Below, piece by piece: positions 16,580 to 34,187 of a stretch of 64,000 nt of DNA. Both the position numbers and the translations under genes were made by a program. This DNA comes from Patescibacteria group bacterium (lineage in GTDB: Bacteria; Patescibacteriota; JABMPQ01; JAHIRA01), in NCBI GenBank assembly GCA_018818205.1, contig JAHISJ010000023.1:95103-159102 (forward strand), read 5' to 3'. Below the pieces are notes generated by a model, which was given only the letters and a program-made list of their open reading frames with translations, was not told where the DNA came from and made no database searches. Position 1 is the stretch's first letter; each line of letters starts with the position of its first letter.

Positions 16580-16622
16580 TTGTGAGATAAAAGGAGTACA
16601 CACTGTCTTGTTGTGTTTTTTT

Positions 16623-17852: not shown

Positions 17853-17981
17853 GTCTCATAGAGCCTCGAAACGGTTACCTAGCTAATTTTTATTTGACTT
17901 TTGAATAATTTAGCGTTAAATGAGTAGTGTTGACCTTTTTACTAGGGGGAATGTGCAAAATTTCTGCAGCAGGAGGTAAAA

Positions 17982-18887
17982 GTGGCCGTACAGAAGAAAA
18001 GCGTTTCAAGAGCAAATTATAGAATGCTCGCGCTTCTGTTTTTGGTGATTGTTTTGTTGTTAATAATTATTTTTGCATCAAGCGGTGACAAAAATTTAGA
18101 GCCGTATGCAGCGCCGATTGTTCAAAAAACGCCACGTGACGATTTCTCTCACCCCTCGTTCTCGGGTAGAGTACCACAAGCAAAAAAAATGTTTAGAAAA
18201 AAGTTTTCTCGTAAAAAAGAGACGAAAAAGCTTACTAAAAAAAAGCAGACTCAGTTTAAAAAAAAGGCACTTGACTGGTGTTATGCACTTGCCAAAAAGA
18301 CAATGGATACCGTTAAGGAAAATCCTTTAAAACATGGTTTAATCTCGTATGATATGATTTATAATGCAGGCAACCCTGAAAAACAAAAAAAGGAATGGGG
18401 GAGCATAGAATCACGACTGAGAAAGATTAAGGACTCTTGTGGTGCATATTCAAAAAGGCCATGGAAAGAACTTGCGACATCATTAATAAACCGTGTCGCA
18501 TTGATTAGATATTCAAATATGCTTTGTCATGAGGCAAAGAAAATTTGCGTTAAGTATCCAAAATGGTTTTCTCATCAAAACTTCAAAGGTCTTCTTAGAG
18601 CTAAAGATTTGCAAAAACTTAATTCTAAATGTAAGCCGTATACAACATTAAAATGTCCAAATAAGGCTGACAAAACGTTTTTAGATTTTAGAAAGTCACT
18701 CCATTCCAGCGTTAATAAAGCAGGGCTGCCGATGACTGCTTTTACTGATAAAGTTGCACATACATACAAAGGTAGATTTTTTGATTTTACAAAACATTTC
18801 TTGAAGAAGGGTACACCCAGATTGTGGTGTTTCTCCAGTGGTAGAACGTATTCAGAAAAGTTGAAACGATGCATTGCTAAGAAATAA
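17982..18887 (+). CDS. hypothetical membrane-anchored, highly basic, Cys-containing protein
   Basis: N-terminal TM helix (LALLFLVIVLLLIIIFA), Lys-rich stretch, 10 Cys in the exo-domain. No family recognised. Confidence 0.45.
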   Translation: MAVQKKSVSRANYRMLALLFLVIVLLLIIIFASSGDKNLEPYAAPIVQKTPRDDFSHPSFSGRVPQAKKMFRKKFSRKKETKKLTKKKQTQFKKKALDWCYALAKKTMDTVKENPLKHGLISYDMIYNAGNPEKQKKEWGSIESRLRKIKDSCGAYSKRPWKELATSLINRVALIRYSNMLCHEAKKICVKYPKWFSHQNFKGLLRAKDLQKLNSKCKPYTTLKCPNKADKTFLDFRKSLHSSVNKAGLPMTAFTDKVAHTYKGRFFDFTKHFLKKGTPRLWCFSSGRTYSEKLKRCIAKK

Positions 18888-18910
18888 AAACTGTTGTATA
18901 TACATTGTTT

Positions 18911-18946
18911 GAGGCTCTCGTAAGAACCATGAGAGCCTTTTTTTAT
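18911..18946 (+). terminator. rho-independent terminator (GGCTCTC-loop-GAGAGCC plus T8)
   Basis: Perfect 7-bp GC-rich inverted repeat at 18913-18919 / 18931-18937, followed by TTTTTTTATT. Confidence 0.7.
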
Positions 18947-19057
18947 TGGAAATGTGGATAGCTCGTCATTGTATTCTTGGGCTATAAGATGTACAATACA
19001 AATGTTGCTCTTTTCACATTAATGCAAATAAAAATATTTGCTTGGAGGACTTGAAAG

Positions 19058-20623: not shown

Positions 20624-20674
20624 ACTGGTAACCTAGGCTAAAAAAAGAGCAACACTGACAAAGAACATAATCGA

Positions 20675-20707
20675 AGGCCCTGTCTTATTAAGACGTGGCC
20701 TTTTTTT
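20675..20707. terminator. hairpin terminator between convergent genes (AGGCC..GTCTTA / TAAGAC..GGCCT plus T7)
   Basis: Long imperfect inverted repeat followed by TTTTTTT on the + strand. It overlaps the last codons of the minus-strand gene. Confidence 0.55.
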
Positions 20708-21386
20708 CTGTTTGTTTTTGGAGATACATATTGAATGGTGAATCCTTGAGAATAATATCCGTACTTATATTCCATATTGTACCTACACAAAACGCGTAAT
20801 CATCTTTAAGAAGAGATAAATTCATAATATCGTCCATGTTGTAGGTATACGTATCTAAAACGAGTATTTTCTTTATCTGTTTTGCTGATTCATGCGCTTG
20901 TTTTAAATTGAACACAAAAAGGGAATCAAAGAGTGCAATAAGCAACTTGTTATCCGGGGTTGATTCATTGTAGCTGGCTAAAAATGGTAATGAAAGCAAA
21001 GCACTTTTAAGATTATTGGGGAGAGTAAAAGGATTTATGAGAAGCTTTAAGAGAAAATACCGGGAGCCTCCTATGCATATAGTTGATTGCACAGTAGATA
21101 AGAATTCATACATGCGGTCAAAGTATGGAACGTCTAGGTATTTACCCCATATTATTAAGTACTGCTCTCTAACGGCAGAAGAGGACTGTAAGAAAGAGAC
21201 ATATTGTTCAGAAATAGAGTCTTTGAGAAGTGAAATTGTAGTATTCCATTCACTGTCAGTGAATGTTTTTAAACCCTTAATCGATAATTCATTTATCTCG
21301 CCGCTATCAGTGCTCATTAACATGTGAAATTGTTGAAGTTTTCTTAAGTCGCCTACAGAAATTTCCTGATCAAAAAATTGTTGCAT
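20688..21386 (-). CDS. hypothetical cytoplasmic protein
   Basis: 232-aa ORF with no recognisable motifs. It converges on the lipoprotein gene. Confidence 0.45.
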   Translation of the reverse strand: MQQFFDQEISVGDLRKLQQFHMLMSTDSGEINELSIKGLKTFTDSEWNTTISLLKDSISEQYVSFLQSSSAVREQYLIIWGKYLDVPYFDRMYEFLSTVQSTICIGGSRYFLLKLLINPFTLPNNLKSALLSLPFLASYNESTPDNKLLIALFDSLFVFNLKQAHESAKQIKKILVLDTYTYNMDDIMNLSLLKDDYAFCVGTIWNISTDIILKDSPFNMYLQKQTEKKATS

Positions 21387-21520
21387 ATAGATGAGTAATA
21401 GTTAATGTACACTCATTATAGCAAAGATTTTTTTTAAATAAATAGACAATCAAGCCTATTTATGCTACTCTAAAATATAAATTCGAGCACCTTGTTGTCT
21501 CTCACCATTAGCAATGTGCC

Positions 21521-22915
21521 ATGACGCTACTCAATACCCCGTGCTCTAATTGGCCACAAGACAGAAGGCGAGCACAGGAACAAATCAAAGAAGTTGTCCA
21601 GATTATTTCAACTGACCATGGGAACGTATTGTGGTATCAAAAAAATACAATACACTATTTAACCACGTATTGCTGTAGGTATGAACCAAATGTGTTGCCT
21701 AAACTTGTGGAGGGGTTTAGTACACACAAACAGTATATAGAGATGTTAACCGGACTTTCCTACTTTTTTGTCGAAAATAAAAAAAGAAATAAAGAAATTT
21801 CGGGAACAGTAACTCAAGCATATAAGATGGTTTTAGTAAACGTGGATGTTATTGATGCTAAGGAAAAAAAGCTTGGGCTTATGCTCAAGGGAACTGGTGA
21901 ATTGAGAAATACAGAGTTGTTTGAGGGGACGTGGGATCGGCTTCAAAAAAGTAGACTTGGTGCAATAGGGTTTAGTACTGCTTTTGGAGCGGCGGGTCGC
22001 CTAAGATCTGATGTCCTGTTAAGAAAAATATGGTCAGAATCTGACAAGACTACGTTCACATCATGGACGTATGGGTCTGCGTTTAAGGCAGCAGGGGATG
22101 TCTTAAGCGGCGATCTTTTAGTAGAGATTTGGGCTGAGTCATCAAAAACACCTCTTGGAAGCATAGAGTATTCAGTTGCGTTACTTGCAGCAAGCAAGAC
22201 ATATAATAAGCCATTGCTAAAGGAGATATGGGAAAAAGCATCAAGTGGTGATTTAGATTCAAAGGCATATGGAGCTGCCTTAAAGGCGGCAGGTGGCGTG
22301 CATGATAAAGAGTTACTTGTAAAAATGTGGAAGAGTATTCCAAAAGCTAATTTGACCCCGGCTGAGTGGGGATCTGCATTTACGGCCGCGGGTGCTGCAT
22401 ATTCTCCTGACTTACTTGAGGAGATTTGGAAAGGTGCACCTAAAGTTAGCTTAACTGCGCCCGAGTGGGGTTCTGCACTCACAGCTGCCGGTGCCGTTCA
22501 TAGTGAAGATCTTTTAATCGATGTCTGGGAGCAGACGCCCAAAAATATGCTTACCCCAATTGAGTTTGGTTCTGCGTTTACTGCTGCAGGTGAGGTAGGA
22601 AGCAGTCGACTTTTAAACGAAATGTGGAGGGAGGCTCCAGCTAAAAAAATGAACCTCATTAGTTATGCATCGCTTATTAAGGCAAGTGGAAAGGTTAAAG
22701 ATAAAAAATTATTTTTAGAGGTATATAGTGAGATTAAGAAGAGACAAGTATTTAGGGAAATGAGGGAGCTTGGGAAGGTAATTGCGTGCTGCAAAATTTT
22801 TGACCTCAGTGATATTTTTTTTGAGGTCTACAACTATGTTCATTCATCCGGACTTAATCTTACCAGAGCAGAGAAGAGGTTTTTAGAAAAATCAGTAGAG
22901 TATTTTGAAAAATAA
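21521..22915 (+). CDS. helical-repeat protein with ~8 tandem 33-aa repeats (PPR/TPR-like)
   Basis: Repeats such as TPAEWGSAFTAAGAAYSPDLLEEIWKGAPKVSL, APEWGSALTAAGAVHSEDLLIDVWEQTPKNML and IEFGSAFTAAGEVGSSRLLNEMWREAPAKKMNL, with a 99-nt period. Confidence 0.6.
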   Translation: MTLLNTPCSNWPQDRRRAQEQIKEVVQIISTDHGNVLWYQKNTIHYLTTYCCRYEPNVLPKLVEGFSTHKQYIEMLTGLSYFFVENKKRNKEISGTVTQAYKMVLVNVDVIDAKEKKLGLMLKGTGELRNTELFEGTWDRLQKSRLGAIGFSTAFGAAGRLRSDVLLRKIWSESDKTTFTSWTYGSAFKAAGDVLSGDLLVEIWAESSKTPLGSIEYSVALLAASKTYNKPLLKEIWEKASSGDLDSKAYGAALKAAGGVHDKELLVKMWKSIPKANLTPAEWGSAFTAAGAAYSPDLLEEIWKGAPKVSLTAPEWGSALTAAGAVHSEDLLIDVWEQTPKNMLTPIEFGSAFTAAGEVGSSRLLNEMWREAPAKKMNLISYASLIKASGKVKDKKLFLEVYSEIKKRQVFREMRELGKVIACCKIFDLSDIFFEVYNYVHSSGLNLTRAEKRFLEKSVEYFEK

Positions 22916-22975
22916 AACAAAAAAGCCATCTCTTAAAAAAGAAATGGCATTGATTTTTAAACATTTGTGGTCCTC

Positions 22976-23227
22976 TTAGAGACCGAGTAATCGTTTCCAC
23001 CAAGGACGCTTGGCAGTTTCTAGTGTTGCAATAATCTGATGAGCTTGAGCCAAACTTTCTTCACCAAGTGGAGTGTCTTGAGAAAGCTTATGGAATTCTT
23101 CTTCTTTATTTCCCTGTTCGGCAATAATGCCTTTTTTAAATTCAACAAGTGCTTCTCCAATAGTAAACACATCAATGGTTGTTCCAAGTTTTTTTGCAAT
23201 TTCTTCTTGTGCCCTACGTAAAACCAC
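22976..23227 (-). CDS. small hypothetical charged/helical protein
   Basis: 83-aa ORF; this frame looks more protein-like than the overlapping 23020..23262 frame. No homology evidence. Confidence 0.3.
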   Translation of the reverse strand: MVLRRAQEEIAKKLGTTIDVFTIGEALVEFKKGIIAEQGNKEEEFHKLSQDTPLGEESLAQAHQIIATLETAKRPWWKRLLGL

Positions 23228-23397
23228 AATAATCCTCCTCTGTTTTGATCAAAAGTGATCATGGGCTATTTTTATCACACCTTTAAAATTTGTCAAGACT
23301 TTTTACTTGATTTATTTCAAAACCTATGATATATAAAGTCTAGCGCAGCAAAGAGCTGCGTTGTAGTTTCCAGTTCATTTTTGTGTCTTAAAGACAC

Positions 23398-24177
23398 ATG
23401 GGAGGAGTAGTGGTAAGAAAGGATGTTTATAATTATTTGAATATCCCGTTTACACGGGAAAACGCAGCTTCTATAATTTCTAGCCCAGGTTTAACGCAAC
23501 AAAATATTAATGGTGCCTTTTTGACTCCTGCCCAGTGGCAGGCGAGACGTAGACTACATTCAAGCGATGGAAGGTACGCTGGATATCAGAATTTACTAAG
23601 GATGTTGGATATGCCAGTTCCTGCTGGCAAGGAAGATTTTCTCATGGGATTAGATATGCTGGGAACTCACAATCCCGCGATGCTATTTGTTGCAGCACTT
23701 CTTAATGTAAAACCAATTGATCTTAAGGATATTTCCGAAGAACAAGCTTTAACAGTCACCAGCTTCTTTGGAAACGCACGCGCTATTGTGTTGCAGGTTC
23801 TAATCCTTATAGAAATTATGAGAGTAAATGAAATCGAAAAACTCAAAGTACCAGTATTTGAAAGAAGATTGTTGGGTGCGCTTAATTTAAGTGACGCAAA
23901 ATTAATCCTTCCAGTTCTCTATGAAGGAATGGCGCTCCTCCCGGTTATCAATGATTCGCTTTTGCATTATTTGGCAAGCTATTTCGAGGCATTGCAGGAT
24001 CCGACATTGGAAAAGGTTGGAAACTGGAATTCATTTGAGCCGGGCATTTTTCTTGATAAAAGCTTGCCTCCTGAGATAAAAGTTAGTGCATCACAATGCT
24101 TGCAAACCCAAAGGGGGTCTATTAGTGAACGCATGAGAAGAGTTCAAGAGAACCTGCAAAGAATTCGCGTTAAATAA
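23398..24177 (+). CDS. hypothetical protein
   Basis: 259-aa ORF preceded by an AT-rich promoter-like region (TTGATT-N17-TATATA). No known motifs. Confidence 0.45.
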   Translation: MGGVVVRKDVYNYLNIPFTRENAASIISSPGLTQQNINGAFLTPAQWQARRRLHSSDGRYAGYQNLLRMLDMPVPAGKEDFLMGLDMLGTHNPAMLFVAALLNVKPIDLKDISEEQALTVTSFFGNARAIVLQVLILIEIMRVNEIEKLKVPVFERRLLGALNLSDAKLILPVLYEGMALLPVINDSLLHYLASYFEALQDPTLEKVGNWNSFEPGIFLDKSLPPEIKVSASQCLQTQRGSISERMRRVQENLQRIRVK

Positions 24178-24255
24178 TATCATGAAGATTTATTTTTTTT
24201 AGGCAACTCACGCTTTGCGTAAGTTGCTTTTTTGTATTTGTTGTTGTGTTCTTCT

Positions 24256-25161
24256 TCAAATAGTATCTGTAAATCTTTTTTCTACAGTAAAGGTAATAGG
24301 AGTTGTAAGGGCAACGGGAACGTTATCAAGAATTCTTACTAGTCTTGTACGCTTAAGCAGTGAATACAATGCAACAAAATATTTTTGTCGCTCAGCAAAA
24401 CCTGGGTCAGTATCTAATCGATGGAGCGTTTTTTGTAGACTGTCTCTCTTAAATGTAATTGTTAAATCCATTGATTTACATAGTTTTTTCAGTTTTCTTG
24501 TTGTAACAAAATACAACCCATTCCACAGCGATGATTTTTTTAAGCGTGGCGCAAAAAATGGTGTAAGCTTAGGGAAAAGTGGCACCAACATGATGTTAAT
24601 GTGAGGTTCATAGGGAACAAAATAGTTAGCAGTGTTATGTATCATTACGCCCCCGGGTTTTAAGACGTTCTTCATTGCTAAAAAGGATTTATCGAACTCT
24701 GGTATATGTTCCAAAACATTATTAGAAAAGAGTACGTCAAATCGCTCATTGATTTTTGTGCAGTCTTCAGATAGTAGGGGATAAAAGTGAGATTTATCAA
24801 CATCAATTATCTTAAACAACTCTCTTGCAGCGTTAAAATATCCACCAAAACCTGAGTCAGAGGGCTCTATAGCATAGATAGTGTATCCTTGTTTTCTTAG
24901 AAAACCATACACTAATCCAAGGCCACCTCCAATTTCCAGCATAAAATCTTTTTTAGAATAATGTAAAGTTTGGATAAGTGATAATGTCAGCTCCGCTTCT
25001 TCGAGGTAGTGCTGCAAGATTTTTTCAAACGTTTCTTTTCCACTTAAGCTGTTACTAGTATTTAGAAATTCCTGATGCGACAATATTTCCTTGCTAAAAA
25101 TAGGATTCTTGTATAATTCATTACTGTATGACAGATAAAAATCAGTTAAAGATGTAGCCAT
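24256..25161 (-). CDS. class I SAM-dependent methyltransferase
   Basis: Motif I LEIGGGLG and motif II-like DVLFSNNVLEHI...LKPGG (Methyltransf_11/12 type). Confidence 0.75.
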   Translation of the reverse strand: MATSLTDFYLSYSNELYKNPIFSKEILSHQEFLNTSNSLSGKETFEKILQHYLEEAELTLSLIQTLHYSKKDFMLEIGGGLGLVYGFLRKQGYTIYAIEPSDSGFGGYFNAARELFKIIDVDKSHFYPLLSEDCTKINERFDVLFSNNVLEHIPEFDKSFLAMKNVLKPGGVMIHNTANYFVPYEPHINIMLVPLFPKLTPFFAPRLKKSSLWNGLYFVTTRKLKKLCKSMDLTITFKRDSLQKTLHRLDTDPGFAERQKYFVALYSLLKRTRLVRILDNVPVALTTPITFTVEKRFTDTI

Positions 25162-25295
25162 TGTTTTAGTTGCGAATTTTAAATAGCATCATTGCCTTTT
25201 GTGTAGTATGGAAAGGGAAATAAATTTGACACAAATACAAGCACTCACTCTGCATTTTCTAAAAAAGTGCGAAGCATGACAGCTCAGTGAGAGTA

Positions 25296-26132
25296 CTATT
25301 TACAAGAAAGTCTACGTCCATCTAAAGTATCATTCATTTTCAACCAACTAAAATTCAAGCGATTTGCCTCTTCACAAAATTCATTAGGATCTAACTCATA
25401 TTCCACACCCAAAACGGCTTTATCTTGTTCAATAAATGGTAATAGTTTCTCACATTCATCATAATAAAAACAGTGTTCATTAATGGCAAAATCAAAATAA
25501 TTCACTAAATCATCAACTTGTTCCAGGTCATTTTTTAGAGCAATGGAAAGATTTCTTTTGTGTGCTTCTTCTGCTAGCCATTTATTGTAATTGAGTTGGT
25601 CTTCGTACGTTAAATCAAAACCCGTATCATTTTGATACCCGTCACTATTGTCTGGCTCAACACCATCACATCCTTTTTGCATCGCAAGGTCAAGGCGCTT
25701 TTTTATACTGTCTGCAAAGAGAGCATAGTGAGAAATGTCCAGCCACTTTTCATCAGGCCAATTTTCTAATGGTTTTCCAATAACTTCATCTGGAAAATCC
25801 TTTGCATCTTCTCTATAATTTTCCACACTTCCTGCAGAAAAATAACAGATAACGTTGATATCTCTGCTATGAAGTTCATCAATAACTGTTTGAGGAGTTT
25901 CTGAAAGGTCTATGTCATACAAATCAACAGTGTAATCAGTATTTATGGTGCCTGATAGCTGCCATTGCCAAGTTGTCCCTTGTTTCGGCCTATACCATGA
26001 ATCATCATTGTTTGTATCAATTGTGGAAGTTTCTTCTTTTGGTGTTGTAGTAGTGTTCGTATCAAGTGGTGATATACAACCGTTTAGGATTAGGATAACC
26101 ATAATTAGCGCTTTGAGTACTATTTTATTCAT
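25296..26132 (-). CDS. GH114-like endo-alpha-1,4-polygalactosaminidase lipoprotein
   Basis: Lipobox LILNGCIS and conserved GH114 blocks (WQWQLSG, NVICYFSAGS, KGCDGVEPDN, LKNDLEQ, FDFAINEHCFYYDEC). Confidence 0.7.
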   Translation of the reverse strand: MNKIVLKALIMVILILNGCISPLDTNTTTTPKEETSTIDTNNDDSWYRPKQGTTWQWQLSGTINTDYTVDLYDIDLSETPQTVIDELHSRDINVICYFSAGSVENYREDAKDFPDEVIGKPLENWPDEKWLDISHYALFADSIKKRLDLAMQKGCDGVEPDNSDGYQNDTGFDLTYEDQLNYNKWLAEEAHKRNLSIALKNDLEQVDDLVNYFDFAINEHCFYYDECEKLLPFIEQDKAVLGVEYELDPNEFCEEANRLNFSWLKMNDTLDGRRLSCK

Positions 26133-26339
26133 AGGTAGTGGCTAAAAGTAGCGAAGCATTAAAACTTTCGCATCATTTTTGAAAATTATTTCACATACTG
26201 CCTGTCTGGCATACACATTTGCCAATATCTATTTTATTGTATCTAATAAAAGGAAAATCGGCAATTTTGTATGATTAATAGAGTGGTCTCTTCCTAACCT
26301 AGCGAGCATGAGATACAAAACACCAAATATCTTTGACAA

Positions 26340-26367
26340 CAAAAAAGCCCAAAATTGGGACTTTAAC
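26340..26367 (-). terminator. intrinsic terminator downstream of the tRNA (CCCAA..TTGGG plus T6 on the minus strand)
   Basis: Reverse complement reads ...AGTCCCAATTTTGGGCTTTTTTG directly after the tRNA 3' end. Confidence 0.5.
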
Positions 26368-26443
26368 TGGAGCCAGGAATGGGGATCGAACCCATGACCT
26401 GCGCGTTACGAGTGCGCCGCTCTGCCAACTGAGCTATCCTGGC
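26368..26443 (-). tRNA. tRNA-Thr (anticodon CGU), CCA encoded
   Basis: Reverse complement GCCAGGA-TA-GCTC-AGTTGGCA-GAGC-G-GCGCA-CTCGTAA-CGCGC-AGGTC-ATGGG-TTCGATC-CCCAT-TCCTGGC-T-CCA folds as a cloverleaf. The anticodon loop CU-CGU-AA gives anticodon CGU. The single 31-39 A-C mismatch leaves the isotype slightly uncertain. Confidence 0.8.
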
Positions 26444-26566
26444 AATTTTTATGACATCTTTAAAATACCATAGCAATGTGGTGCTTTCAAGCACAGTTTC
26501 AATGTGAAAAAAGAAATACGATAGATCTATATTTTCTCAAAGGTAGTCTGGAATAAGCCAAAATCA

Positions 26567-26594
26567 TTGACAAAACCTCTAATTACCGTAGAAT
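26567..26594 (+). promoter_or_regulatory. sigma70-like promoter, TTGACA-N16-TAGAAT
   Basis: TTGACA at 26567-26572 and TAGAAT at 26589-26594, ~35 nt upstream of the AGGAGG-ATG of paralog 1. Confidence 0.5.
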
Positions 26595-26629
26595 TCGAAG
26601 TCACACTACACAAATGTTCAGGAGGAACA

Positions 26630-27622
26630 ATGAAAAAAATATTCACAATTATTCTATTTATGTTGATTCCATTTTATGCCCAGGCAAGTGTTAACAAACT
26701 GGGCGTACTTCAACTCGGTCATGCACTTGTGTGTAAAAGATTACAGCAAGAAATTTTACCAGTAGTTTTAAAGATCCTTCGTCAAAGAGATGTACAATTT
26801 GATATTATCGATATTGAACCACAAATATATTATGACAACTATCTTAAGGAAGCACGAAAAAGAAAGTTACCATATTTACTGTTATTGTCCTGCCAAAGTA
26901 CAGAGGTAAGTAAATTCAAATATCAGACTCTCTTTATACCAGTGCTCTTAAAAATTCTGGGGAAAAATTCTAAAAGCTTTAAGACAGATAGCTTAAAGCT
27001 ATATCATGTAAAGAAGTTCAAGGGGGTAAAAAACTACGTGATTAAGATAGTAAAAAGATATCTGTCATTAGTTTGGGAAAAACGAAAATTATCGTTTGTT
27101 CGTGGTTTTGTGCTCTGTGGGAACTTAATCACAACCGACTTTAATCTGGGACTTATCTTTATGGGGGTTTACGATTTAAGGTACAAAAGCAGACGCAGAC
27201 TTGCTTTTGGTATTACTGCAGGAATTGATTTTGCACAACGCTATAGAGTATCTCTTTCTGCTCTTGGTGGGTATCCCATCACTTCTGCCTCATTAAACCT
27301 GTTCTTTTCTTTAAGCGGGGCGTATGCGTTACTCTTTAAGCAGTGGAACGTTTTTTCACTTTGGATATCACCGATTGGATACGAAAATAGATTATTTTTC
27401 TTTTCAAAGAGTACCGATTTCAGAGGTCATGAGCACAGGTTTCCAGTGGGTATTGATCTTGAGCTTAACCTACTTCGTATTTTTGGAGTGAGAGCGTATG
27501 ACCTGAAACTTGTTCTAGGCGCGCGGTATTCATTAGGCTTTGCTGTTTCCAACACTAATACGCCTGCAACATTTTTGTGGAGAGATGTATCTTTTCACTC
27601 ACGATTGCTGTGGACATTTTAA
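26630..27622 (+). CDS. secreted protein of unknown function, paralog 1 (beta-rich C-terminal domain ending in aromatic residues)
   Basis: AGGAGGA RBS plus ATG at 26630. Signal peptide MKKIFTIILFMLIPFYAQA. The C-terminal ~170 aa are homologous to the 27723 ORF. Confidence 0.6.
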   Translation: MKKIFTIILFMLIPFYAQASVNKLGVLQLGHALVCKRLQQEILPVVLKILRQRDVQFDIIDIEPQIYYDNYLKEARKRKLPYLLLLSCQSTEVSKFKYQTLFIPVLLKILGKNSKSFKTDSLKLYHVKKFKGVKNYVIKIVKRYLSLVWEKRKLSFVRGFVLCGNLITTDFNLGLIFMGVYDLRYKSRRRLAFGITAGIDFAQRYRVSLSALGGYPITSASLNLFFSLSGAYALLFKQWNVFSLWISPIGYENRLFFFSKSTDFRGHEHRFPVGIDLELNLLRIFGVRAYDLKLVLGARYSLGFAVSNTNTPATFLWRDVSFHSRLLWTF

Positions 27623-27627
27623 TTCTA

Positions 27628-27662
27628 CGCCCCCTAGCCATTACGCATAGGTGGGCTTTTTT
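27628..27662 (+). terminator. strong intrinsic terminator (CGCCCCCTAGC...GCATAGGTGGGC plus T6), copy 1
   Basis: GC-rich ~11-bp stem followed by TTTTTT. A near-identical copy follows paralog 2. Confidence 0.75.
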
Positions 27663-27663
27663 C

Positions 27664-27692
27664 TTGACAGTATCTTACATTTATTGTATTAT
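27664..27692 (+). promoter_or_regulatory. sigma70-like promoter, TTGACA-N17-TATTAT
   Basis: TTGACA 27664-27669 and TATTAT 27687-27692, then AAGGAGGA and a GTG start at 27723. Confidence 0.55.
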
Positions 27693-27722
27693 TTTAGGCT
27701 ACCCTAAAACCAAGGAGGAACT

Positions 27723-28721
27723 GTGAAAAAATATCTGTGTTTTTTTTATTTCTTAACTCTATTTCCTTGCGCTGCTCAAGGCGCTGCTCAAGTAGATTTG
27801 TCAAAAAAACTTGCTGTGCTTAAAGTCGGAATGTCTGGGAAATGTGCCCAGATTCAACAAAATCAGTGGAAAAATGTGGTAAAAAAAATGATTATCAAAA
27901 AAGGGATCCCCTTTGAAGTACTTAAGACACCTCGTAATCGTAAAGAGTTTTTAGCATTGATCAAAGATGCTGAGAAAAAAAAGGCAAGATTGATTCTTCT
28001 TATGATGTGTGGTCCGGCTAGAATTCATCAGAAAAAAGTGTATAAGCATGCGATTTTTCTATTCTTTATTAAAAATGAAGATAAAAATGCATTTTCTATT
28101 TATGCCCAATCTAGGACCACAAAAACAATCAAAGACGTTAAAAAACGTTTAAGTGTAATTTTGGATCATGGAAAAAGGTTTTTAGAATCAAGATATGTTC
28201 CAAAAAGATTCTTCAAAAACGAATCAAGAGGAAAAAAGCTCGATACTGCCTTTAATCTTGGACTTTCTGCTATAAGTACATATGATTTTATGTATAAAAC
28301 CAAGGGAAGACTTGCCTTTGGTGTAGCAGGTGATATTGACTTTGTACGTCGATACAGATTGTCGCTTGCTGTGCACGGCGGATTTCCACTATCCTTACCT
28401 TCCCTTAATATATTCGTTTCAGTGAGTGGAGCGTACGCATTACTCCACAAAAAATGGAATGTGTTTTCCTTCTGGATTGTTCCAATTGGGTATGAGGCAA
28501 GGCTGCTATTTTCAGGAAGTAGCCTTAAAGGACATGAGCATAGAATTCCGCTGGGAATTGACTTAGAGCTTCATGTTTTGCGATTGTTTAAAGTTAATAA
28601 ACCTGATTTACGTTTTGCTGTTGGTGGACGATATTCGATTGGCTTTGCCTTTGGCAAGTCTAAAAGCAGGTTTTCCTATTCTGAAATTTTATTCAATGCC
28701 GGCTTAAAGCTGGCATTATAA
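27723..28721 (+). CDS. secreted protein of unknown function, paralog 2 (tandem duplicate of 26630..27622)
   Basis: GTG start after AAGGAGGA. Signal peptide MKKYLCFFYFLTLFPCAAQGAAQ. Shares LAFG..G.DF..RYR.SL...GG.P...SLN.F.S.SGAYALL.K.WNVFS.WI.PIGYE.RL.F......GHEHR.P.GIDLEL..LR.F with paralog 1. Confidence 0.6.
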   Translation: MKKYLCFFYFLTLFPCAAQGAAQVDLSKKLAVLKVGMSGKCAQIQQNQWKNVVKKMIIKKGIPFEVLKTPRNRKEFLALIKDAEKKKARLILLMMCGPARIHQKKVYKHAIFLFFIKNEDKNAFSIYAQSRTTKTIKDVKKRLSVILDHGKRFLESRYVPKRFFKNESRGKKLDTAFNLGLSAISTYDFMYKTKGRLAFGVAGDIDFVRRYRLSLAVHGGFPLSLPSLNIFVSVSGAYALLHKKWNVFSFWIVPIGYEARLLFSGSSLKGHEHRIPLGIDLELHVLRLFKVNKPDLRFAVGGRYSIGFAFGKSKSRFSYSEILFNAGLKLAL

Positions 28722-28726
28722 TCCTA

Positions 28727-28761
28727 CGCCCCCTAGCTGTTACGCTTAGGTGGGCTTTTTT
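28727..28761 (+). terminator. strong intrinsic terminator, copy 2 (CGCCCCCTAGC...GCTTAGGTGGGC plus T6)
   Basis: Same stem as 27628-27662 with small loop/bulge differences, followed by TTTTTT. Confidence 0.75.
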
Positions 28762-28833
28762 ATTACAAACTATCTTACTTCTCTTTTTACAATTTGATAT
28801 ACTAAAGTATCAGTTAATAATTAATACTCATGT

Positions 28834-29922
28834 ATGCTCGATGTAAAACAAGTAAAGAAATATTCTGACATTGTTTCAGAGAAAGAAGATATCGTATCAC
28901 TCTACTTAAATGCTGATCAAAGCGTAAGAACAACAGAGGAGATTCGGATAGAACTTAAAGATCTATTGCGCGTTGTAGAAGAACGAGGTCTTACAAAAGA
29001 TGCAAAAAAAATTGATGACTACCTCAAGCAAGATCTTATGCGAAGTATTAGGTCACTGATGTTTATTGCATCCGATGCTCAGGGGATTTTTGATGTATTA
29101 CGCCTTCCTGTTCCTGTAGTTGACCAGGTTTCTGTGTCAAATAAAGTTAATGTGACACCACTATGCAGAATGCTTGATGAATACGAGCGATACGCAGTGA
29201 TCATGATTGATAAAGAAAAGATGCGTCTCTTCACCGTCTATATGGGTGAAATAGAAGAGCATGATACAGATGCATTATCATACTTTCCAGGACATCACAA
29301 AAAAGGGGGCTGGTCTCAAGCACGGTTCCAGCGTCATATTGAAGACCATACCAATTCAATGATAAAAGATACAGTAAAAGCAATAACTCGGTATGAGAAG
29401 GATTACCCGTTTGACAGACTCATTATTGGTGGTAGCAAGGAAGTACTTCCTGAGTTTGAAAAAATGTTACCCAAAAATCTTCAAAGCAAAGTTGCAGGCA
29501 AGCTATCTCTAGAGATGTTTGTCTCAGACCATGACGTGCTAGAAGAATCAATGAGGATAGAAGAGCAAATAGAACGAGAGAAAGAAGAGGACCTCGTGAA
29601 GAGACTTGTGGATAATCTTGGAGAAGGAAACAAAGCGGTAAGAGGAATGGACAAAGTACTTCTTATGCTTGAGGAGGGTAAGGCAATGGAAATCGTTATT
29701 GATGAGGAGCTAGAAGAAACGGGTAAAAAGTGTACCAAGTGTGATCATTTAGCTCTTGATGAACTAAAATGTTCGTACTGTGGTGGTGACATGGAGATTC
29801 TTCCAGACCTTATCTCTGAGATAGTGAACAAAGCACTAAACAGTAATGTTGAGATTGAGTTTGTGCGTGGCAGTGATCTTCTTAAGGAAAACAAAAGCAT
29901 AGGTGCATTCCTAAGGTTTTAA
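28834..29922 (+). CDS. bacterial eRF1/aRF1-like release-factor homologue (baeRF1) with a variant GGQ loop (GGWSQ) and a C-terminal Cys4 zinc ribbon
   Basis: FPGHHKKGGWSQARFQRH...DRLIIGGSKEVLPEF aligns with aRF1 domain 2 (PGKHKAGGQSARRFERL...IIGGPGPTKEEF). An eRF1-domain-3-like segment follows (GMDKVLLMLEEGKAMEIVIDEEL) and carries CTKCDH...CSYCGG. Confidence 0.6.
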   Translation: MLDVKQVKKYSDIVSEKEDIVSLYLNADQSVRTTEEIRIELKDLLRVVEERGLTKDAKKIDDYLKQDLMRSIRSLMFIASDAQGIFDVLRLPVPVVDQVSVSNKVNVTPLCRMLDEYERYAVIMIDKEKMRLFTVYMGEIEEHDTDALSYFPGHHKKGGWSQARFQRHIEDHTNSMIKDTVKAITRYEKDYPFDRLIIGGSKEVLPEFEKMLPKNLQSKVAGKLSLEMFVSDHDVLEESMRIEEQIEREKEEDLVKRLVDNLGEGNKAVRGMDKVLLMLEEGKAMEIVIDEELEETGKKCTKCDHLALDELKCSYCGGDMEILPDLISEIVNKALNSNVEIEFVRGSDLLKENKSIGAFLRF

Positions 29923-29931
29923 CTAAAACGT

Positions 29932-30570
29932 ATGACATTTCCTGACCGCGTTGAGGCGGGAAAAAAGCTTGCAAGCGAGCTGCAACAAAAATATAGTAAT
30001 GTACCAAATGCCATTGTAGTTGCACTTCCCAGAGGAGGATTACCTCTAGGTTATGAGGTTGCAAAAGCAATGAATATCCCGCTTGATATTGTTGTTCCTA
30101 GGAAAATTGGTGCACCAGGGCACGATGAATATGCAATAGGCGCACTTACAGAAATAGGAGAACCAATCTTTAATGAGTCAGAAAAAGAGCGATTTAACCA
30201 AGATGCAATAGAGAAAATTGTTGCTGAGGAAAAGAAGGAAGCAAGACGGAGACTTGGTTTATACCGAGGGAAAAGCAAACCCCTGAACCTGAAAGATAAA
30301 ACAGTATTTTTAGTGGATGACGGCATAGCTACGGGGCTTACCATGCGTGCAGCGATTCTCTCATGCAAGGCCAAGGAAGCAAAGAAAATCATTGTTGCAG
30401 TACCTGTTGCCTCAAAAGAAGCCCTAGATACTATAGAAAAAGAAGTGGATGACGTAGTATGTCTATATGAGCCTCGCTTCTTCATGGCAGTTGGACAATT
30501 TTACGAAGTGTTTCCACAAACTAAAGACAGCGAAGTTATAGAAACTATGAAAAAGTATCATTCATTTTAG
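29932..30570 (+). CDS. type I phosphoribosyltransferase of the COG1926 'predicted PRTase' type
   Basis: VVALPRGGLPLGYEVAKAMNIPLDIVVPRKIGAPGHDEYAIGAL plus the PRPP-binding loop TVFLVDDGIATGLTMRAAI. Starts 10 nt after the baeRF1 gene. Confidence 0.75.
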   Translation: MTFPDRVEAGKKLASELQQKYSNVPNAIVVALPRGGLPLGYEVAKAMNIPLDIVVPRKIGAPGHDEYAIGALTEIGEPIFNESEKERFNQDAIEKIVAEEKKEARRRLGLYRGKSKPLNLKDKTVFLVDDGIATGLTMRAAILSCKAKEAKKIIVAVPVASKEALDTIEKEVDDVVCLYEPRFFMAVGQFYEVFPQTKDSEVIETMKKYHSF

Positions 30571-30580
30571 CCAAAATAAT

Positions 30581-31456
30581 ATGGATACAAAGGCACTCAG
30601 TGAGCTGCTTATTAGAAGAGAGCCAACTTCACACAAAAAATCTGTAGGTACGGTTCTTGTCATTGGGGGTTCTGCGTTTATGCCTGGAGCGCCTATCTTG
30701 GCGTGTCATGGCGCGTACCGTGCTGGAGCAGGCTTAGTAAAGCTTCTCTTCCCGGAAAGTGTATATGACATTAAGAATAGACTTATGCCAGAGGTTGTAT
30801 TAATGCCTGGCTTTGAGGAGGACAATCAATCTCTTTCTCCAGAAAATATAGAATTGTTGAGTGAGGAAATGGTTCAAGAGGTAGATACGGTGGTCATTGG
30901 CCCTGGCATGTCACGAAACAAAGAAACGATTGAGTTTATTTTACAGGCCATCAAAGTCATTGATAAACCACTTATTATTGATGCGGATGCGTTGTACGCA
31001 CTCTCTGGAAATGTAAACGTGCTTTCTGAAAGAACCGCACCAACCATTTTAACACCTCATGAGGGAGAGATGGGACGATTGCTAGAAATTGATTATCAAG
31101 AAGTTTCAAAGAAGAGAGAAGAAGTGACGTTGACAATGGCAAAAGAGTGGAACAGTTTTATTGTTCTTAAAGGCAATAAAACAGTAGTATGCAGTCCCGA
31201 TGGTCAGAAGTGTATTAACGAGACCGGTAGTCCTGCACTTGCAACTGCAGGAACGGGCGATGTTCTTTCTGGTATTCTTGCAGCGCTACTCGCTCAGTTT
31301 CCAAATCAGAAACTACATACTGTACTTTCTGCAGGAGTATTCATTCATGGCTTTGCAGGCGATTTAGCCGAGAGGGATCTCGGTGAGAGATCAGTTGTTG
31401 CAACAGATCTCATCAGGTATTTACCAAAAGTGTTTAAACAAGCCCAAAGTGTCTGA
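30581..31456 (+). CDS. nnrD: ADP-dependent NAD(P)H-hydrate dehydratase (YjeF C-terminal domain)
   Basis: VLVIGGSAFMPGAP..., GSPALATAGTGDVLSGILAALLAQ; carbohydrate-kinase fold. Confidence 0.75.
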   Translation: MDTKALSELLIRREPTSHKKSVGTVLVIGGSAFMPGAPILACHGAYRAGAGLVKLLFPESVYDIKNRLMPEVVLMPGFEEDNQSLSPENIELLSEEMVQEVDTVVIGPGMSRNKETIEFILQAIKVIDKPLIIDADALYALSGNVNVLSERTAPTILTPHEGEMGRLLEIDYQEVSKKREEVTLTMAKEWNSFIVLKGNKTVVCSPDGQKCINETGSPALATAGTGDVLSGILAALLAQFPNQKLHTVLSAGVFIHGFAGDLAERDLGERSVVATDLIRYLPKVFKQAQSV

Positions 31457-31748
31457 ATTTTCAGAAAAGATTCTCTCTTTGACCAAAAAAATACCTCGTG
31501 GTAAAATAACGACGTACAGCATTTTGGCAAAAAAGGCAGGCTATCCTGGAGCGTATAGAGCATGCGGGACAGCACTGAACAATAATAAAAAACCGATTCT
31601 TATTCCGTGTCATCGTGTTGTCTGTTCCAATGGGTGTGTAGGTGGCTATGCTTTTGGTGAAAAAAGAAAAATAGCTCTACTTGTGAAAGAGGGGATAACT
31701 ATTGATGATGAACATATACGAAATTTCAAACAAAAATTATGGACATAA
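31449..31748 (+). CDS. ogt: methylated-DNA-protein-cysteine methyltransferase (MGMT/Ogt DNA-binding domain)
   Basis: IPCHRVV active-site motif with the surrounding TTYSILAKKAG...ACGTAL helix-turn-helix. The likely start is the GTG at 31449, overlapping the nnrD stop; the start is uncertain. Confidence 0.65.
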   Translation: MSEFSEKILSLTKKIPRGKITTYSILAKKAGYPGAYRACGTALNNNKKPILIPCHRVVCSNGCVGGYAFGEKRKIALLVKEGITIDDEHIRNFKQKLWT

Positions 31749-32587
31749 TGACTAAGAATATGAAAAAAGTAACTGTATCCATAGTGCTTCTAAGCGTTTT
31801 TCTTTTAAGTGGTTGCTCTGTAACAAACTTTTTTAAAGGGCAGGTAGATAAGCTTGGCGGCGGTCCAGAAGTTACTGCAGTTGACCCTACAGATGGTGCA
31901 AACAATGTTGCATTAGATACCCAGGTTAGCGTTACGTTTAACAAGGAGATGGATGAGGGTACACTTAATGCGAAGGGTGTCTATATCTCGTATACTAATG
32001 AGGACTTGGTCGTCTATTTAAATCCATTTTTAAATAGTCAGTATGAGTACAATGCTGACGCAAAGAAATTGAGCATAACTCCATCTCAAGAATTTATTCC
32101 TGACCAAGAAGTAGCTCTTGTAGTAACTGAGTCGGTGAAGGACAGTGATAATAATTCACTGCCAATGAGTAGTAGTTCAGATTCACGTGAGCGATATAAA
32201 TCGACTTTTAGAACGACTAAAGTCCAAGGTGAGGCAAAAGCACAAGACGAGGAAGCGGCTGAAGATACCACCGAGGATCTGTCATTTAACGAGCAGTCCG
32301 CACGCAATGAGGCTGTAGACTTTATTGTCACTAAAAGTGAGACGTATAAGTTCGATGGTAAGGCAGAAACACTTGCTGTAAAATCGGTTACACCCGTTGG
32401 GTGTAAAGGGTGCTATGATGTTGTTATTGTCTTTATTTCAAGAAACGAGGGGTTTGGAGATAGAACAAGGAAGGAGATAATTGGAGGAGATACCCTACAT
32501 GAAACGTCTATCCGATTTGAAAATGGTGAGGTTACAGAAGCTACTATGGACAATGAGTGGGATGTGCTAGAGCAAAAGGAAATGTAG
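31739..32587 (+). CDS. lipoprotein with an Ig-like (Big/SbsA-type) domain
   Basis: Lipobox LLSGCSV; the PEVTAVDPTDGANNVALDTQVSVTFNKEMD segment resembles Big_5/SbsA Ig-like domains. Confidence 0.5.
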   Translation: MDIMTKNMKKVTVSIVLLSVFLLSGCSVTNFFKGQVDKLGGGPEVTAVDPTDGANNVALDTQVSVTFNKEMDEGTLNAKGVYISYTNEDLVVYLNPFLNSQYEYNADAKKLSITPSQEFIPDQEVALVVTESVKDSDNNSLPMSSSSDSRERYKSTFRTTKVQGEAKAQDEEAAEDTTEDLSFNEQSARNEAVDFIVTKSETYKFDGKAETLAVKSVTPVGCKGCYDVVIVFISRNEGFGDRTRKEIIGGDTLHETSIRFENGEVTEATMDNEWDVLEQKEM

Positions 32588-32600
32588 TTAGTATGATGTA

Positions 32601-34187
32601 ATGGCAAAAAAGGTAAAAACGCCAGGACGTAAGAACCAGTCAAAAATTACAAAAGGAGCCGCTATTCTAGCGGTTTCTTCTTTTTTTAGTTATGCCTTTG
32701 GACTACTTAGAGACAGATTGCTTGCAGGGAAGTTTGGTGCAGGTGAGTCTTTGGATGTGTATCAGGCCTCTTTTTTAATTCCTGATCTGGTTCTCAATAT
32801 CTTTTTGGCAGGCGCTCTCGCGTCTGCAATTGTTCCGGTATTAAGTGATTTGCTGCAAAGCAAAGAGAAAAAAGAGCTCAATGATACGGTGAGTTTTCTT
32901 ATAAATGCGGTGCTCATAATCATCAGTATTATTTCTCTGGTATGTTTTATACTCATGCCATGGCTCGTATTAATAACTGCTCCAGGGTTTGTGGGGGAAA
33001 AGAGAGAACTGCTCATTGCTACAAGCCGTATTATGCTTCTTTCTCCAGTTATTTTTGGACTGAGCAATCTTCTTGGTGGGGTGCTTATTTCTTATAAAAA
33101 ATTCGTAGCTTACTCGTTTTCACCCGTTTTGTATAATGCAGGGATAATTGTAGGTATTCTTTTCCTTGCAGACAGGTATGGCGTTATTGGTGTAGCATAT
33201 GGCACTGTTTTTGGTGCCTTGCTCCATTTGTCAATACGCCTTGTTTCTGTGATCCGCTCAAAAATGCGGTATCGTTTTATTACAAAACCAGTTCCAAAAC
33301 CTGCAGTGAGGTCTCTAAAACTCATGCTCCCTAGAATTTTAGGCCTTATTGCGTGGCAAGGAAATTTATGGGTATTTACATTTGTTGGGTCAACACTGCA
33401 GGAGGGGAGTGTTGGCATCTTTAATTTGGCACGCAATTTCCAAAGTTTACCGGTAAGTCTTATTGGCATTTCCCTTGCAACGGCAGTGTTTCCTTTTTTG
33501 TCATCAGATTTTGCAAAAAAAAGGGAAAAATCATTTATGTCTGATTTTATACATTCGTTCAAAAAAATAATATTTCTTACACTCCCTGCATCTTTTGCTC
33601 TAGCACTCCTTAGTACAAGTATTATTTCACTTTTCTTGGGAACAGGTAAATTTAGTGCAGAGGCTGTTGCCGTTACAGCGGGAGTTCTCGCAATTTTCTC
33701 ATTTGTTGTACCCTTTGAAAGTGTAAATCATCTTCTGAGCAGAACATATTATGCGCGGCACAATACCCTTGTTCCGGTTATCATTTCATTTGGTGCCATG
33801 GGGATAAATATTGCATTATGTTTTGCACTAACACGCTATATGGGTATTTATGGCCTTCCTCTCGCATTCTTAATTGCATCAATTGTGCAAACGTTCACGC
33901 TTGTTATTGTTTTAAACAAGGCATTTATCAGGTTGCATCTGAGTAAAATGCTTGGCTATACTCTGCGAGTACTCGTTCCTACAATAAGCATGGCAGGAGT
34001 TATTGCAGTAATCTTGAACTATTTTCCATTACGTGATACGCTGTTAAGTCGTTTTTTTCAATTATCCACTGCTTCCATTTTAGGATTTAGTATCTATTTG
34101 ATAATCGCGTATGTGCTTAAGATAGAAGAAGTACACTACGTTGTAGCGTATATAAAGAAATGGCAAAGAAAGTTCGTGTCACAATAG
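32601..34187 (+). CDS. murJ: lipid II flippase MurJ/MviN (copy 2, paralog of 10203..11783)
   Basis: LAVSSFFSYAFGLLRDRLLAGKFGAGESLDVYQASFLIPDLVLNIFLAGALASAIVPVL and a 528-aa polytopic profile; ~35% identical to copy 1 by eye. Confidence 0.8.
   Translation: MAKKVKTPGRKNQSKITKGAAILAVSSFFSYAFGLLRDRLLAGKFGAGESLDVYQASFLIPDLVLNIFLAGALASAIVPVLSDLLQSKEKKELNDTVSFLINAVLIIISIISLVCFILMPWLVLITAPGFVGEKRELLIATSRIMLLSPVIFGLSNLLGGVLISYKKFVAYSFSPVLYNAGIIVGILFLADRYGVIGVAYGTVFGALLHLSIRLVSVIRSKMRYRFITKPVPKPAVRSLKLMLPRILGLIAWQGNLWVFTFVGSTLQEGSVGIFNLARNFQSLPVSLIGISLATAVFPFLSSDFAKKREKSFMSDFIHSFKKIIFLTLPASFALALLSTSIISLFLGTGKFSAEAVAVTAGVLAIFSFVVPFESVNHLLSRTYYARHNTLVPVIISFGAMGINIALCFALTRYMGIYGLPLAFLIASIVQTFTLVIVLNKAFIRLHLSKMLGYTLRVLVPTISMAGVIAVILNYFPLRDTLLSRFFQLSTASILGFSIYLIIAYVLKIEEVHYVVAYIKKWQRKFVSQ

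Follow-up and report, generated by a model that had tools for sequence, protein, structure and literature searches.

What a protein built like an archaeal or eukaryotic class-I release factor is doing in a bacterium, and what is to be made of the phosphoribosyltransferase (PRTase) encoded directly behind it, is the question raised by a 64,000-nucleotide (nt) stretch of a Patescibacteria group bacterium genome (contig JAHISJ010000023.1, positions 95,103 to 159,102 of the forward strand; hereafter the window, whose own numbering is used for its features). Two open reading frames (ORFs) on the plus strand are concerned, each with an ATG start backed by homologues that align from residue 1: a gene for a protein of 362 amino acids (aa) at 28834..29922, here called baeRF10, and a gene for a type-I PRTase of 212 aa, of the TT1426/COG1926 'predicted PRTase' family, at 29932..30570. 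A reading made from the letters alone (the sequence-only reading) had presented the pair as an anomalous bacterial eRF1-fold protein and its operon partner; both ORFs are as it claimed, and the motifs that it quoted (PGHHKKGGWSQARFQRH, LIIGGSKEVLPEF and CTKCDHLALDELKCSYC) are real. Our analysis shows, however, that baeRF10 belongs, as a typical representative, to a catalogued family, Pfam baeRF_family10 (PF18854; family 10 of the baeRF-1 clade), and is a sister of the Balon hibernation factors, not a new system. By analogy with Balon, we give about even chances to its being a codon-independent A-site factor that would silence, and probably protect, ribosomes under stress.

The assignment to PF18854 rests on a match of 121 bits against a cut-off of 27.1 (E 6.1e-35), in which residues 107-244 of baeRF10 cover positions 3-143 of the 143 in the profile, and the domain was present in all 120 of the closest homologues. 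The protein is a direct member, with the full architecture, the zinc ribbon in the Pelota domain and the Gln-containing loop as published, and its sequence is identical to that of NCBI KKH43_04465 from a metagenome-assembled genome (MAG) of a Patescibacteria group bacterium. The Pfam eRF1_2 model, at 23.6 bits, stayed under its cut-off (27.1), so that the eRF1 kinship that had been claimed is carried by the baeRF models together with profile and fold searches. The NCBIfam aRF1/eRF1 model TIGR03676 gave 74.7 bits against a cut-off of 234.7 (E 6e-21), and a profile of 120 family sequences searched against the PDB aligned with the whole of Halobacterium aRF1 (4af1; E 4e-22) and also recovered A. 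pernix aRF1 (3e-18) and eRF1 (about 1e-16), a likeness to aRF1 that is, at the level of sequence, far beyond chance. The top PDB match by sequence was the Balon protein Msmeg1130 (E 4e-7 with the single sequence and 8e-27, full-length, with the family profile). Foldseek searches with an AlphaFold model made with 120 homologues (predicted local distance difference test score, pLDDT, 88.7; predicted template modelling score, pTM, 0.79; weakest at loop residues 149-164, with pLDDT <50) likewise returned ribosome-bound Msmeg1130 first (template modelling score, TM, 0.85; root-mean-square deviation 3.1 Å), followed at lower ranks by Rv2629 (TM 0.77), P. urativorans Balon (0.75), aRF1 (0.57), eRF1 (about 0.5) and Pelota/Dom34 (at most 0.44). 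The model and the full-length matches together describe a three-domain aeRF1 architecture consisting of an N domain, an M domain of RNase-H fold and a Pelota-like C domain.

The baeRF-1 clade, including family 10, was defined by Burroughs and Aravind in 2019 (PMC6514570), who predicted most of its families to be non-catalytic A-site inhibitors linked to the hibernation factor HPF, described the GGxSQ loop in the VLRF-1 families, regarded the zinc ribbon as an ancestral insert of the Pelota domain, and reported acVLRF-1 to be without the N-terminal codon-binding domain and aVLRF-1 without the Pelota C domain. Cryo-EM, genetic and biochemical work has since characterised Balon and its mycobacterial homologues (Helena-Bueno et al. 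2024, PMC10901736): they fill the A site alongside EF-Tu(GDP), with no dependence on mRNA, keep the peptidyl-transferase centre (PTC) inert and inhibit translation, and they are frequently encoded in stress operons that also hold RaiA, Hsp20, OsmY, alternative sigma factors and RtcB. In Balon a lasso loop takes the place of the GGQ motif and wraps A2602 outside the PTC, an HP motif in the N domain touches A1492/A1913, the M domain carries a bL27 trap loop, and a β-hairpin insertion in the C domain binds domain III of EF-Tu(GDP) (PMC10901736). Because the family is catalogued and its closest solved relatives have been shown to be hibernation factors, baeRF10 is not the uncharacterised anomaly that it had been taken for, and in view of both papers the idea that no such protein had been characterised is not supported or is outdated. 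Papers specifically on family 10, or on Balon-like factors in Patescibacteria, were not found in the literature searched.

In comparison with its relatives, baeRF10 resembles Balon in its fold and N domain, and aRF1 in its loop and zinc ribbon. With Balon (PDB 8rd8, 8v9j, 8v9k) it has in common the three-domain aeRF1 fold in a near-colinear domain arrangement, the lack of NIKS and the lack of a Gln at the GGQ position, although the two are just 14-19% identical, and its N-domain VSLYLNAD matches VSLYFNAD of Msmeg1130. With aRF1 and eRF1 (PDB 4af1, 3agk, 1dt9) it shares full-length homology, a near-identical loop (VPGKHKxGG-x-SQxRYERxIE), an IIGG strand, a zinc ribbon at the same site of the C domain and a C-terminal G-x-LR-[FY], but the catalytic Gln has become Trp, the decoding motifs are gone, the N domain is shorter, and a bacterial host would supply EF-Tu in place of aEF1-alpha or eRF3. 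The M-domain loop PGHHKKGGWSQARFQRH (PGHHKKGG-W-SQARFQRH; 29287..29337, plus strand) is the homologue of the aRF1 GGQ loop by its translation and by alignments to aRF1, eRF1 and Balon, and the quoted M-domain motif LIIGGSKEVLPEF was recovered in the alignment as well. The Gly-Gly turn and the aRF1-like flanks (PGxHK, RFxRH) are kept, and W160 aligns exactly with the Gln of GGQ (family-10 consensus VPGKHKKGGWSQARYERHIE; A. pernix aRF1 VPGKHKMGGQSQRRYERIIE), as had been read from the sequence alone. The Gln two residues further on, Q162, falls at a variable, non-catalytic position of aRF1, which is Q in A. pernix (GGQSQ) and A in Halobacterium and eRF1 (GGQSA). The loop of Msmeg1130 has the same length and an unrelated sequence, and that of baeRF10 comes out disordered in the AlphaFold model. 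The zinc ribbon (CxxC-9-CxxC, CTKCDHLALDELKCSYC; 29731..29781, plus strand, from the translation) is an insert in the Pelota/eRF1_3-like C domain, as the sequence-only reading had it; its four Cys align with the Cys-bearing insert of 4af1, and the ribbon aligns with the stretch GTVGADGSLYADGEIAPHSHAATKD of Msmeg1130, so placed that an intact four-Cys ribbon in baeRF10 falls where Balon has its EF-Tu-contacting hairpin, which is Cys-free. Of the elements that read stop codons (NIKS, YxCxxxF and GTS) none was present at the aligned positions of baeRF10 in the profile alignments, where eRF1 TASNIKSRVN stands opposite '...knllkeveekld...' of family 10 (IELKDLLRVVEERG in baeRF10); baeRF10 is therefore no stop-codon reader.

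Conservation was counted, column by column on the alignment to baeRF10, in the best 150 of 1,839 non-redundant clusters (family profile, E ≤ 1e-30). The four zinc-ribbon Cys columns, kept in 147, 140, 147 and 148 of the 150, are the most conserved feature of the family; the top positions are those of the ribbon, the C-terminal GAxLR[FY], S22/Y24/L25, P109/L110, R131 and R167, a pattern that is as would be expected for binding surfaces. Within the loop, R167 is conserved in 132/150, G159 in 128/150, G158 in 119/150 and W160 in 99/150, and Trp follows GG in about 117 of the 120 closest homologues (clustered at 90% identity), where the second residue after it is Gln in the short-loop form and Q, E or G in the long-loop Nitrospirota form. 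Position 162 is Q in 71, E in 37 and A in 19 of the 150, the true GGQ column holds Gln in three, and 65 (about 43%) have no Gln anywhere in the loop. In the Patescibacteria subclade to which baeRF10 belongs, G158 and G159 are invariant. Since the displaced Gln is kept in this subclade and 65 of the 150 family loops are without any, it characterises the subclade and is not required in the family as a whole. That Trp, not Gln, is the loop hallmark of family 10, and that the zinc ribbon is its most conserved element, appears to be new.

The VLRF-1/Vms1-ANKZF1 clade (GGxSQ or GxxQ loops) shares the GG-x-S-Q form of loop with baeRF10; however, that clade has lost a flanking domain where baeRF10 has both, its loop Gln is conserved where family 10 has the +2 Gln in just the 71 counted above, and the family-10 model scores far higher. 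The acVLRF1 models gave 37 bits with Pfam PF18859, as a secondary match, and 27.6 bits against a cut-off of 125 with NCBIfam; some homologues of baeRF10 are named 'Vms1/Ankzf1 family peptidyl-tRNA hydrolase' by NCBI.

To place the family in its genomic contexts, a locus census took one genome per species (380 species with a relative, 80 loci kept), to which a metagenome scan added 80 more to give 160 loci, and further homologue look-ups added the Patescibacteria loci L161, L162, L166, L172 and L173; L-numbers label the family-10 loci compared. Partner genes were sought by clustering of flanking ORFs, by Pfam on the two ORFs to either side in 78 genome loci, and by tblastn over the 160 loci. 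Neither the 78-locus census nor the 160-locus tblastn gave a family-wide partner gene for baeRF10, only lineage-specific synteny, and the family is sporadic in Patescibacteria and in other phyla. The clearest stress context of a family-10 gene is L008 (Chloroflexota MAG JADGHJ010000202.1, 636-6351), where one strand carries an extracytoplasmic function (ECF) sigma factor, baeRF10, two Hsp20 genes, a BON (OsmY-like) protein, a third Hsp20 and a TT1426-type PRTase; it is the only stress context outside Patescibacteria with the PRTase on the same strand. Over the 160 loci the nearby genes included ArsA-HSP20-like ATPases in 26, PCMT in nine, Hsp20 in six and ECF sigma factors in six. All 26 loci with an ArsA-like ATPase bearing an HSP20-like domain beside baeRF10 are of Actinomycetota type (for example L031, 4510-5733), PCMT (protein-isoaspartate repair) adjoins baeRF10 in nine loci, and DUF72 adjoins it in seven, from Chloroflexota and Patescibacteria. 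Balon shows a similarly sporadic, lineage-hopping spread with stress neighbourhoods, as family 10 does in some lineages such as that of L008.

The three-domain fold, the absence of decoding motifs, the absence of the catalytic Gln and the near-invariant zinc ribbon are observed in baeRF10; homology, along with contexts such as that of L008, leads us to infer A-site binding, engagement of the PTC, contact with EF-Tu and induction by stress. On this basis baeRF10 would enter the A site of the ribosome whatever the codon. Its SLYLNAD loop, present also in mycobacterial Balon, would seat the N domain on the decoding centre, the GGW loop, together with the Arg-rich helix behind it, would be placed at or in the PTC, and the zinc-ribbon face of the C domain would contact EF-Tu or the GTPase centre. 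The expected outcome would be ribosomes that are occupied, silenced and probably protected in stress or growth arrest, most likely with no release of the peptide. The link to the PRTase would most likely be regulatory, pairing the shut-down of translation with nucleotide salvage in a salvage-dependent organism, and would probably be neither a physical nor an enzymatic partnership.

Several observations weigh against this Balon-type reading. The loop of baeRF10 is aRF1-like, PGxHKxGG-W (PGKHKxGG...RYERH in aRF1), whereas that of Balon is the unrelated 'lasso' loop, and the Balon equivalogs of NCBIfam scored far below their thresholds (MSMEG_1130, 70.7 of 480 bits; AOC03_06830, 58.2 of 330; Rv2629, 37.9 of 320). 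At the N-domain loop where P. urativorans Balon has VKTHREHPANDQ (REHPAN), taken here to be the published HP motif, baeRF10 has LNADQSVRTT, without HP; Msmeg1130 (FNADPTQN) is likewise without a literal HP at that place. Adjacency to HPF/RaiA is known for Balon, but HPF was adjacent to baeRF10 in none of the loci censused, and the neighbours of baeRF10 in the window are housekeeping, not stress, genes. Experiments on family 10 were not found in the literature searched. In baeRF10's own subclade the conservation of W160, of S161 and of Q162 is 90% or higher, and the overlap of an ArfB-like gene with the PRTase gene at one locus (L173, see below) hints at a theme of ribosome rescue. For catalysis by release factors the side chain of the Gln counts for less than the glycines and the backbone at its position, and if that holds here, a GGW loop could still be active. 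Burroughs and Aravind singled out family 10 as possibly catalytic, reading the pattern of Gln in its loop as compatible with catalysis (PMC6514570).

The last of these points lead to the alternative that family 10 is an active, codon-independent peptidyl-tRNA hydrolase with an ArfB- or Vms1-like role in rescue, in which Q162 or the backbone of W160 would activate water; we regard it as possible, if doubtful. A loop nearly identical to that of aRF1 save for Q to W, with both flanks (PGxHK and RFxRH) kept, the invariant glycines G158 and G159 and the conserved W160/S161/Q162 of the Patescibacteria subclade are all consistent with it, as are the potential catalysis foreseen in PMC6514570, the GGxSQ form found also in aVLRF-1 and acVLRF-1, the 37-bit acVLRF1 match and the 'Vms1/Ankzf1' names, the ArfB-like gene in the L173 operon and the RtcB-Archease genes near baeRF10 in L004 and L166. 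Set against these are the 65 of 150 family members whose loop has no Gln, with Glu (37) and Ala (19) frequent at position 162 and Gln at position 160 in just three, the homology of Q162 to a variable, non-catalytic position of aRF1, and the fact that the closest relatives overall are the non-catalytic Balons. A bulky Trp at the water-coordinating position would also fit the canonical chemistry poorly, and where ArfB is present a GGQ hydrolase is already supplied.

A further reading, which we consider rather unlikely, would make family 10 a mechanistically distinct class of bacterial A-site factor. Whereas the lasso loop of Balon lies outside the PTC, family 10 may push its conserved Trp into the PTC, either as a 'PTC plug' or as a Gln-independent hydrolase, dock its intact zinc ribbon on EF-Tu or the GTPase centre, and, in Patescibacteria, be wired by its operon to salvage through phosphoribosyl pyrophosphate (PRPP). 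If that were true, ultra-small cells that depend on salvage and also have a short HPF would control translational shut-down and nucleotide recovery jointly. Family 10 is the bacterial aeRF1 lineage closest to aRF1 in its loop and zinc ribbon, yet its catalytic Gln has given way to Trp, and it poses the testable question of whether a Balon-type factor can enter the PTC and whether the Gly-Gly turn alone supports hydrolysis. The factor also has a link to the management of dormancy in the Candidate Phyla Radiation (CPR)/Patescibacteria, most of which are uncultured and have tiny genomes.

The downstream PRTase matched Pfam Pribosyltran (E 2e-18; 66.5 bits against a cut-off of 26.3) and T. thermophilus TT1426 (1wd5_A; E 2.1e-32, residues 1-202 on 1-199), a full-length match that extends to the PRPP loop (VFLVDDGIATGLTM, 30304..30345, plus strand, from the translation) and shows no structural difference, in agreement with the COG1926-type enzyme claimed. 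It is to all appearance an ordinary-looking PRPP-dependent type-I transferase, whose general partner would be metabolic. At least 7,975 homologues were counted, the closest 120 almost all from Patescibacteria, and the papers found on TT1426 state no function. Five Patescibacteria orthologs picked without reference to baeRF10 gave none near baeRF10 (0/5), and in four of the five the next gene downstream is that of PRPP synthetase, the commonest neighbour of this PRTase in Patescibacteria. In three of these five unrelated Patescibacteria, SPP, Archease and RtcB lie divergently upstream of the PRTase-Prs pair.

The two genes are very probably transcribed together, to judge from the layout of the locus. 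They are 9 nt apart (29923-29931), a further 10 nt separates the PRTase from NnrD (NAD(P)H-hydrate dehydratase; 30581..31456, plus strand; Pfam Carb_kinase E 4e-54, TIGR00196 221 bits) in the same co-directional array, and a consensus terminator scan found no terminator-like site within 28834-32653. Upstream, a promoter-like TTGATA-16-AATAAT (28794..28821, plus strand; a consensus match only, at 10 of 12 positions) ends 12 nt before the ATG of baeRF10, which would give a very short leader or none. Behind the stop codon of the preceding gene (28721), a hairpin with a U-run (28728..28762, plus strand) is a likely intrinsic terminator (-15.3 kcal/mol, z = -2.58 against shuffles, UUUUUU after the stem, in an RNA fold of 28722-28775), which likely separates the baeRF10 unit from the paralogs upstream; the consensus terminator scan did not pick it up. 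Rfam gave no regulatory RNA in 26000-33000, its sole match being a tRNA. The operon proposed from the sequence alone thus agrees with the gaps, the lack of a terminator, the promoter-like site and, as follows, the recurrence of the junction. NnrD recurs downstream in L004, L006, L161, L164 and L166 and is a syntenic neighbour of the pair, not a demonstrated partner.

After removal of redundancy the Patescibacteria loci formed nine lineage groups, 29-54% identical to one another, and in seven of the nine a PRTase lies directly downstream of baeRF10. One group is mixed, with the PRTase in L002 and L172 and without it in L003 and L007, whose baeRF10 is 79-90% identical to that of L002/L172, and one (L006/L164) has no such junction. 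The gaps between the two genes in Patescibacteria run from a 1-nt overlap (L162) through 1 nt (L172) up to 18 nt, and, because its flanks vary, the junction is the most stable in the block. Among 153 family-10 loci from outside Patescibacteria, none had an adjacent PRTase, and three (L008, L144 and L153) had one within 5 kb, that of L144 at 4.8 kb and on the opposite strand. The baeRF10-PRTase junction is therefore ancestral in one Patescibacteria clade, a clade-restricted operon and not a family-wide module; the adjacency foreseen in the sequence-only reading holds within that clade and fails beyond it. A mechanistic partnership of the two proteins is not supported, while co-regulation is plausible, and the Patescibacteria-specific junction appears to be new. 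The claim that comparative genomics had predicted such pairs was not borne out, since the main text of PMC6514570 is without PRTase and reports the HPF linkage. The operon is at most a weak lead on the function of the TT1426/COG1926 enzymes.

Some of the compared loci carry further genes at the junction. In L166 (5100-9095), L004 (7100-8387) and L167-L169, two tandem PRTase paralogs follow baeRF10; in L166 these are succeeded by DUF72, NnrD, Archease and RtcB, and L004 also has RtcB and Archease. In L173 (Logan SRR10556092 contig, 2769-3173) a gene for an ArfB-like rescue factor of 134 aa, which has an RF-1 domain, the motif SSSKGGQNVDK and a C-terminal tail of basic character, shares 8 nt with the 3' end of the PRTase gene to give the array baeRF10-PRTase-ArfB, at this locus only. 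In L153 (metagenome contig Ga0209810_1000519, 6158-7681) the PRTase is fused to a dienelactone hydrolase and lies 1.3 kb downstream of baeRF10 with a class-V fructose-bisphosphatase (FBPase) between. M. tuberculosis Rv0571c, a putative PRTase, has this PRTase::dienelactone-hydrolase architecture.

The stronger proposal, that baeRF10 and the PRTase form a dedicated module for phosphoribosylation or repair of tRNA or rRNA ends, or for a nucleotide signal, possibly in stress or phage conflict, is in our view very unlikely. The tight junction kept over deeply diverged Patescibacteria while the flanks vary, with translational coupling likely in L162 and L172, would suit such a module, as would the PRTases within 5 kb in three unrelated loci among the 153 outside Patescibacteria (against a rough chance expectation of about 0.4) and the DosR regulon of M. 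tuberculosis, which lists the putative PRTase Rv0571c (possibly of the same family), the Balon homologue Rv2629 and RtcB. Against it stand the absence of adjacency in all 153 of those loci, the loss of the PRTase in L003 and L007 and its lack throughout the L006/L164 group, the fact that PRTase orthologs far outnumber baeRF10 and that four of the five sampled genomes have theirs beside PRPP synthetase, and the silence of the main text of PMC6514570 on any PRTase. PADLOC gave no match for baeRF10, and weak matches for the PRTase (E 2.6e-6 or weaker) in the region of the PRPP loop only, and among the window genes scanned there were no defence, phage or transposase families, so that the suggested role in phage conflict finds no echo in a neighbourhood of housekeeping genes; as a candidate defence system the locus was rejected.

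That baeRF10 is a true stop-codon class-I release factor supplementing or replacing RF1/RF2 in a reduced genome, as its full-length aRF1/eRF1 homology (TIGR03676 and profile values above), Gly-Gly turn and aRF1-type zinc ribbon might suggest, is extremely unlikely given that GGQ, NIKS, YxCxxxF and GTS are all absent, that TIGR03676 stays far under its cut-off, that family 10 is sporadic and never displaced RF1/RF2, and that the window reads well with standard table 11.

The pair lies in a conserved block, in which LepA (12712), bPH, DivIC and a SurA-like peptidyl-prolyl isomerase (PPIase; ending at 16579) are followed, after an insert of 12 kb, by baeRF10, the PRTase, NnrD, an MGMT-type protein, Big_5, MurJ, a C39-like peptidase and RarA; the same gene order, without the 12-kb insert, is found in other Patescibacteria. 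GC content over baeRF10 and the PRTase is 0.38-0.41, a range shared by the remainder of the window; it is a little lower, at 0.35-0.37, in the variable segment (16608-28721, about 12 kb), which contains a major facilitator superfamily (MFS) transporter, family-less ORFs, a methyltransferase, GH114, tRNA-Thr(CGT) and two paralogs. The proposal that the pair sits in an accessory, horizontally acquired stretch beside a tRNA was thus rejected in favour of a core block in which only the 12 kb upstream are variable: the tRNA-Thr exists (26368-26443, minus strand), but it is 2.4 kb upstream of baeRF10 with two genes between.

The rest of the 64-kb window holds housekeeping genes of the cell envelope and of division, and Prs, RtcB, Archease, SPP, Dps and ArfB-like genes are absent from it. 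It does encode a short HPF/RaiA-type protein of 103 aa, comprising the N-terminal domain only (58187-58498, plus strand; Ribosomal_S30AE E 6.6e-17, PDB HPF matches E 1e-9), with secA (58510-61149) directly downstream. The organism has thus retained a canonical hibernation factor, which rules out baeRF10 as a substitute for an HPF lost from a small genome. The co-existence of a short HPF and a Balon-like factor in one genome appears to be new.

Other features of the window were noted in passing. The two tandem paralogs upstream of baeRF10 (26567-27622 and 27723-28721, plus strand) are 37% identical and have no Pfam family; each has a signal-peptide-like N terminus and, in the C-terminal half, an alternation that recalls β-barrel strands, which is odd for a Patescibacterium, and each is preceded by a near-consensus promoter-like TTGACA-16/17-TAxxAT (26567, 27664). 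The MGMT-type protein behind NnrD carries the DNA-binding domain alone; its longest ORF (31383-31748, with GTG as start codon) has 74 nt in common with the 3' end of NnrD, and because the domain match begins at residue 25 its true start is probably further downstream. Two genes for MurJ-family flippases (10203-11783 and 32601-34187; 339 and 265 bits with the Pfam MurJ model) lie 21 kb apart in the window.

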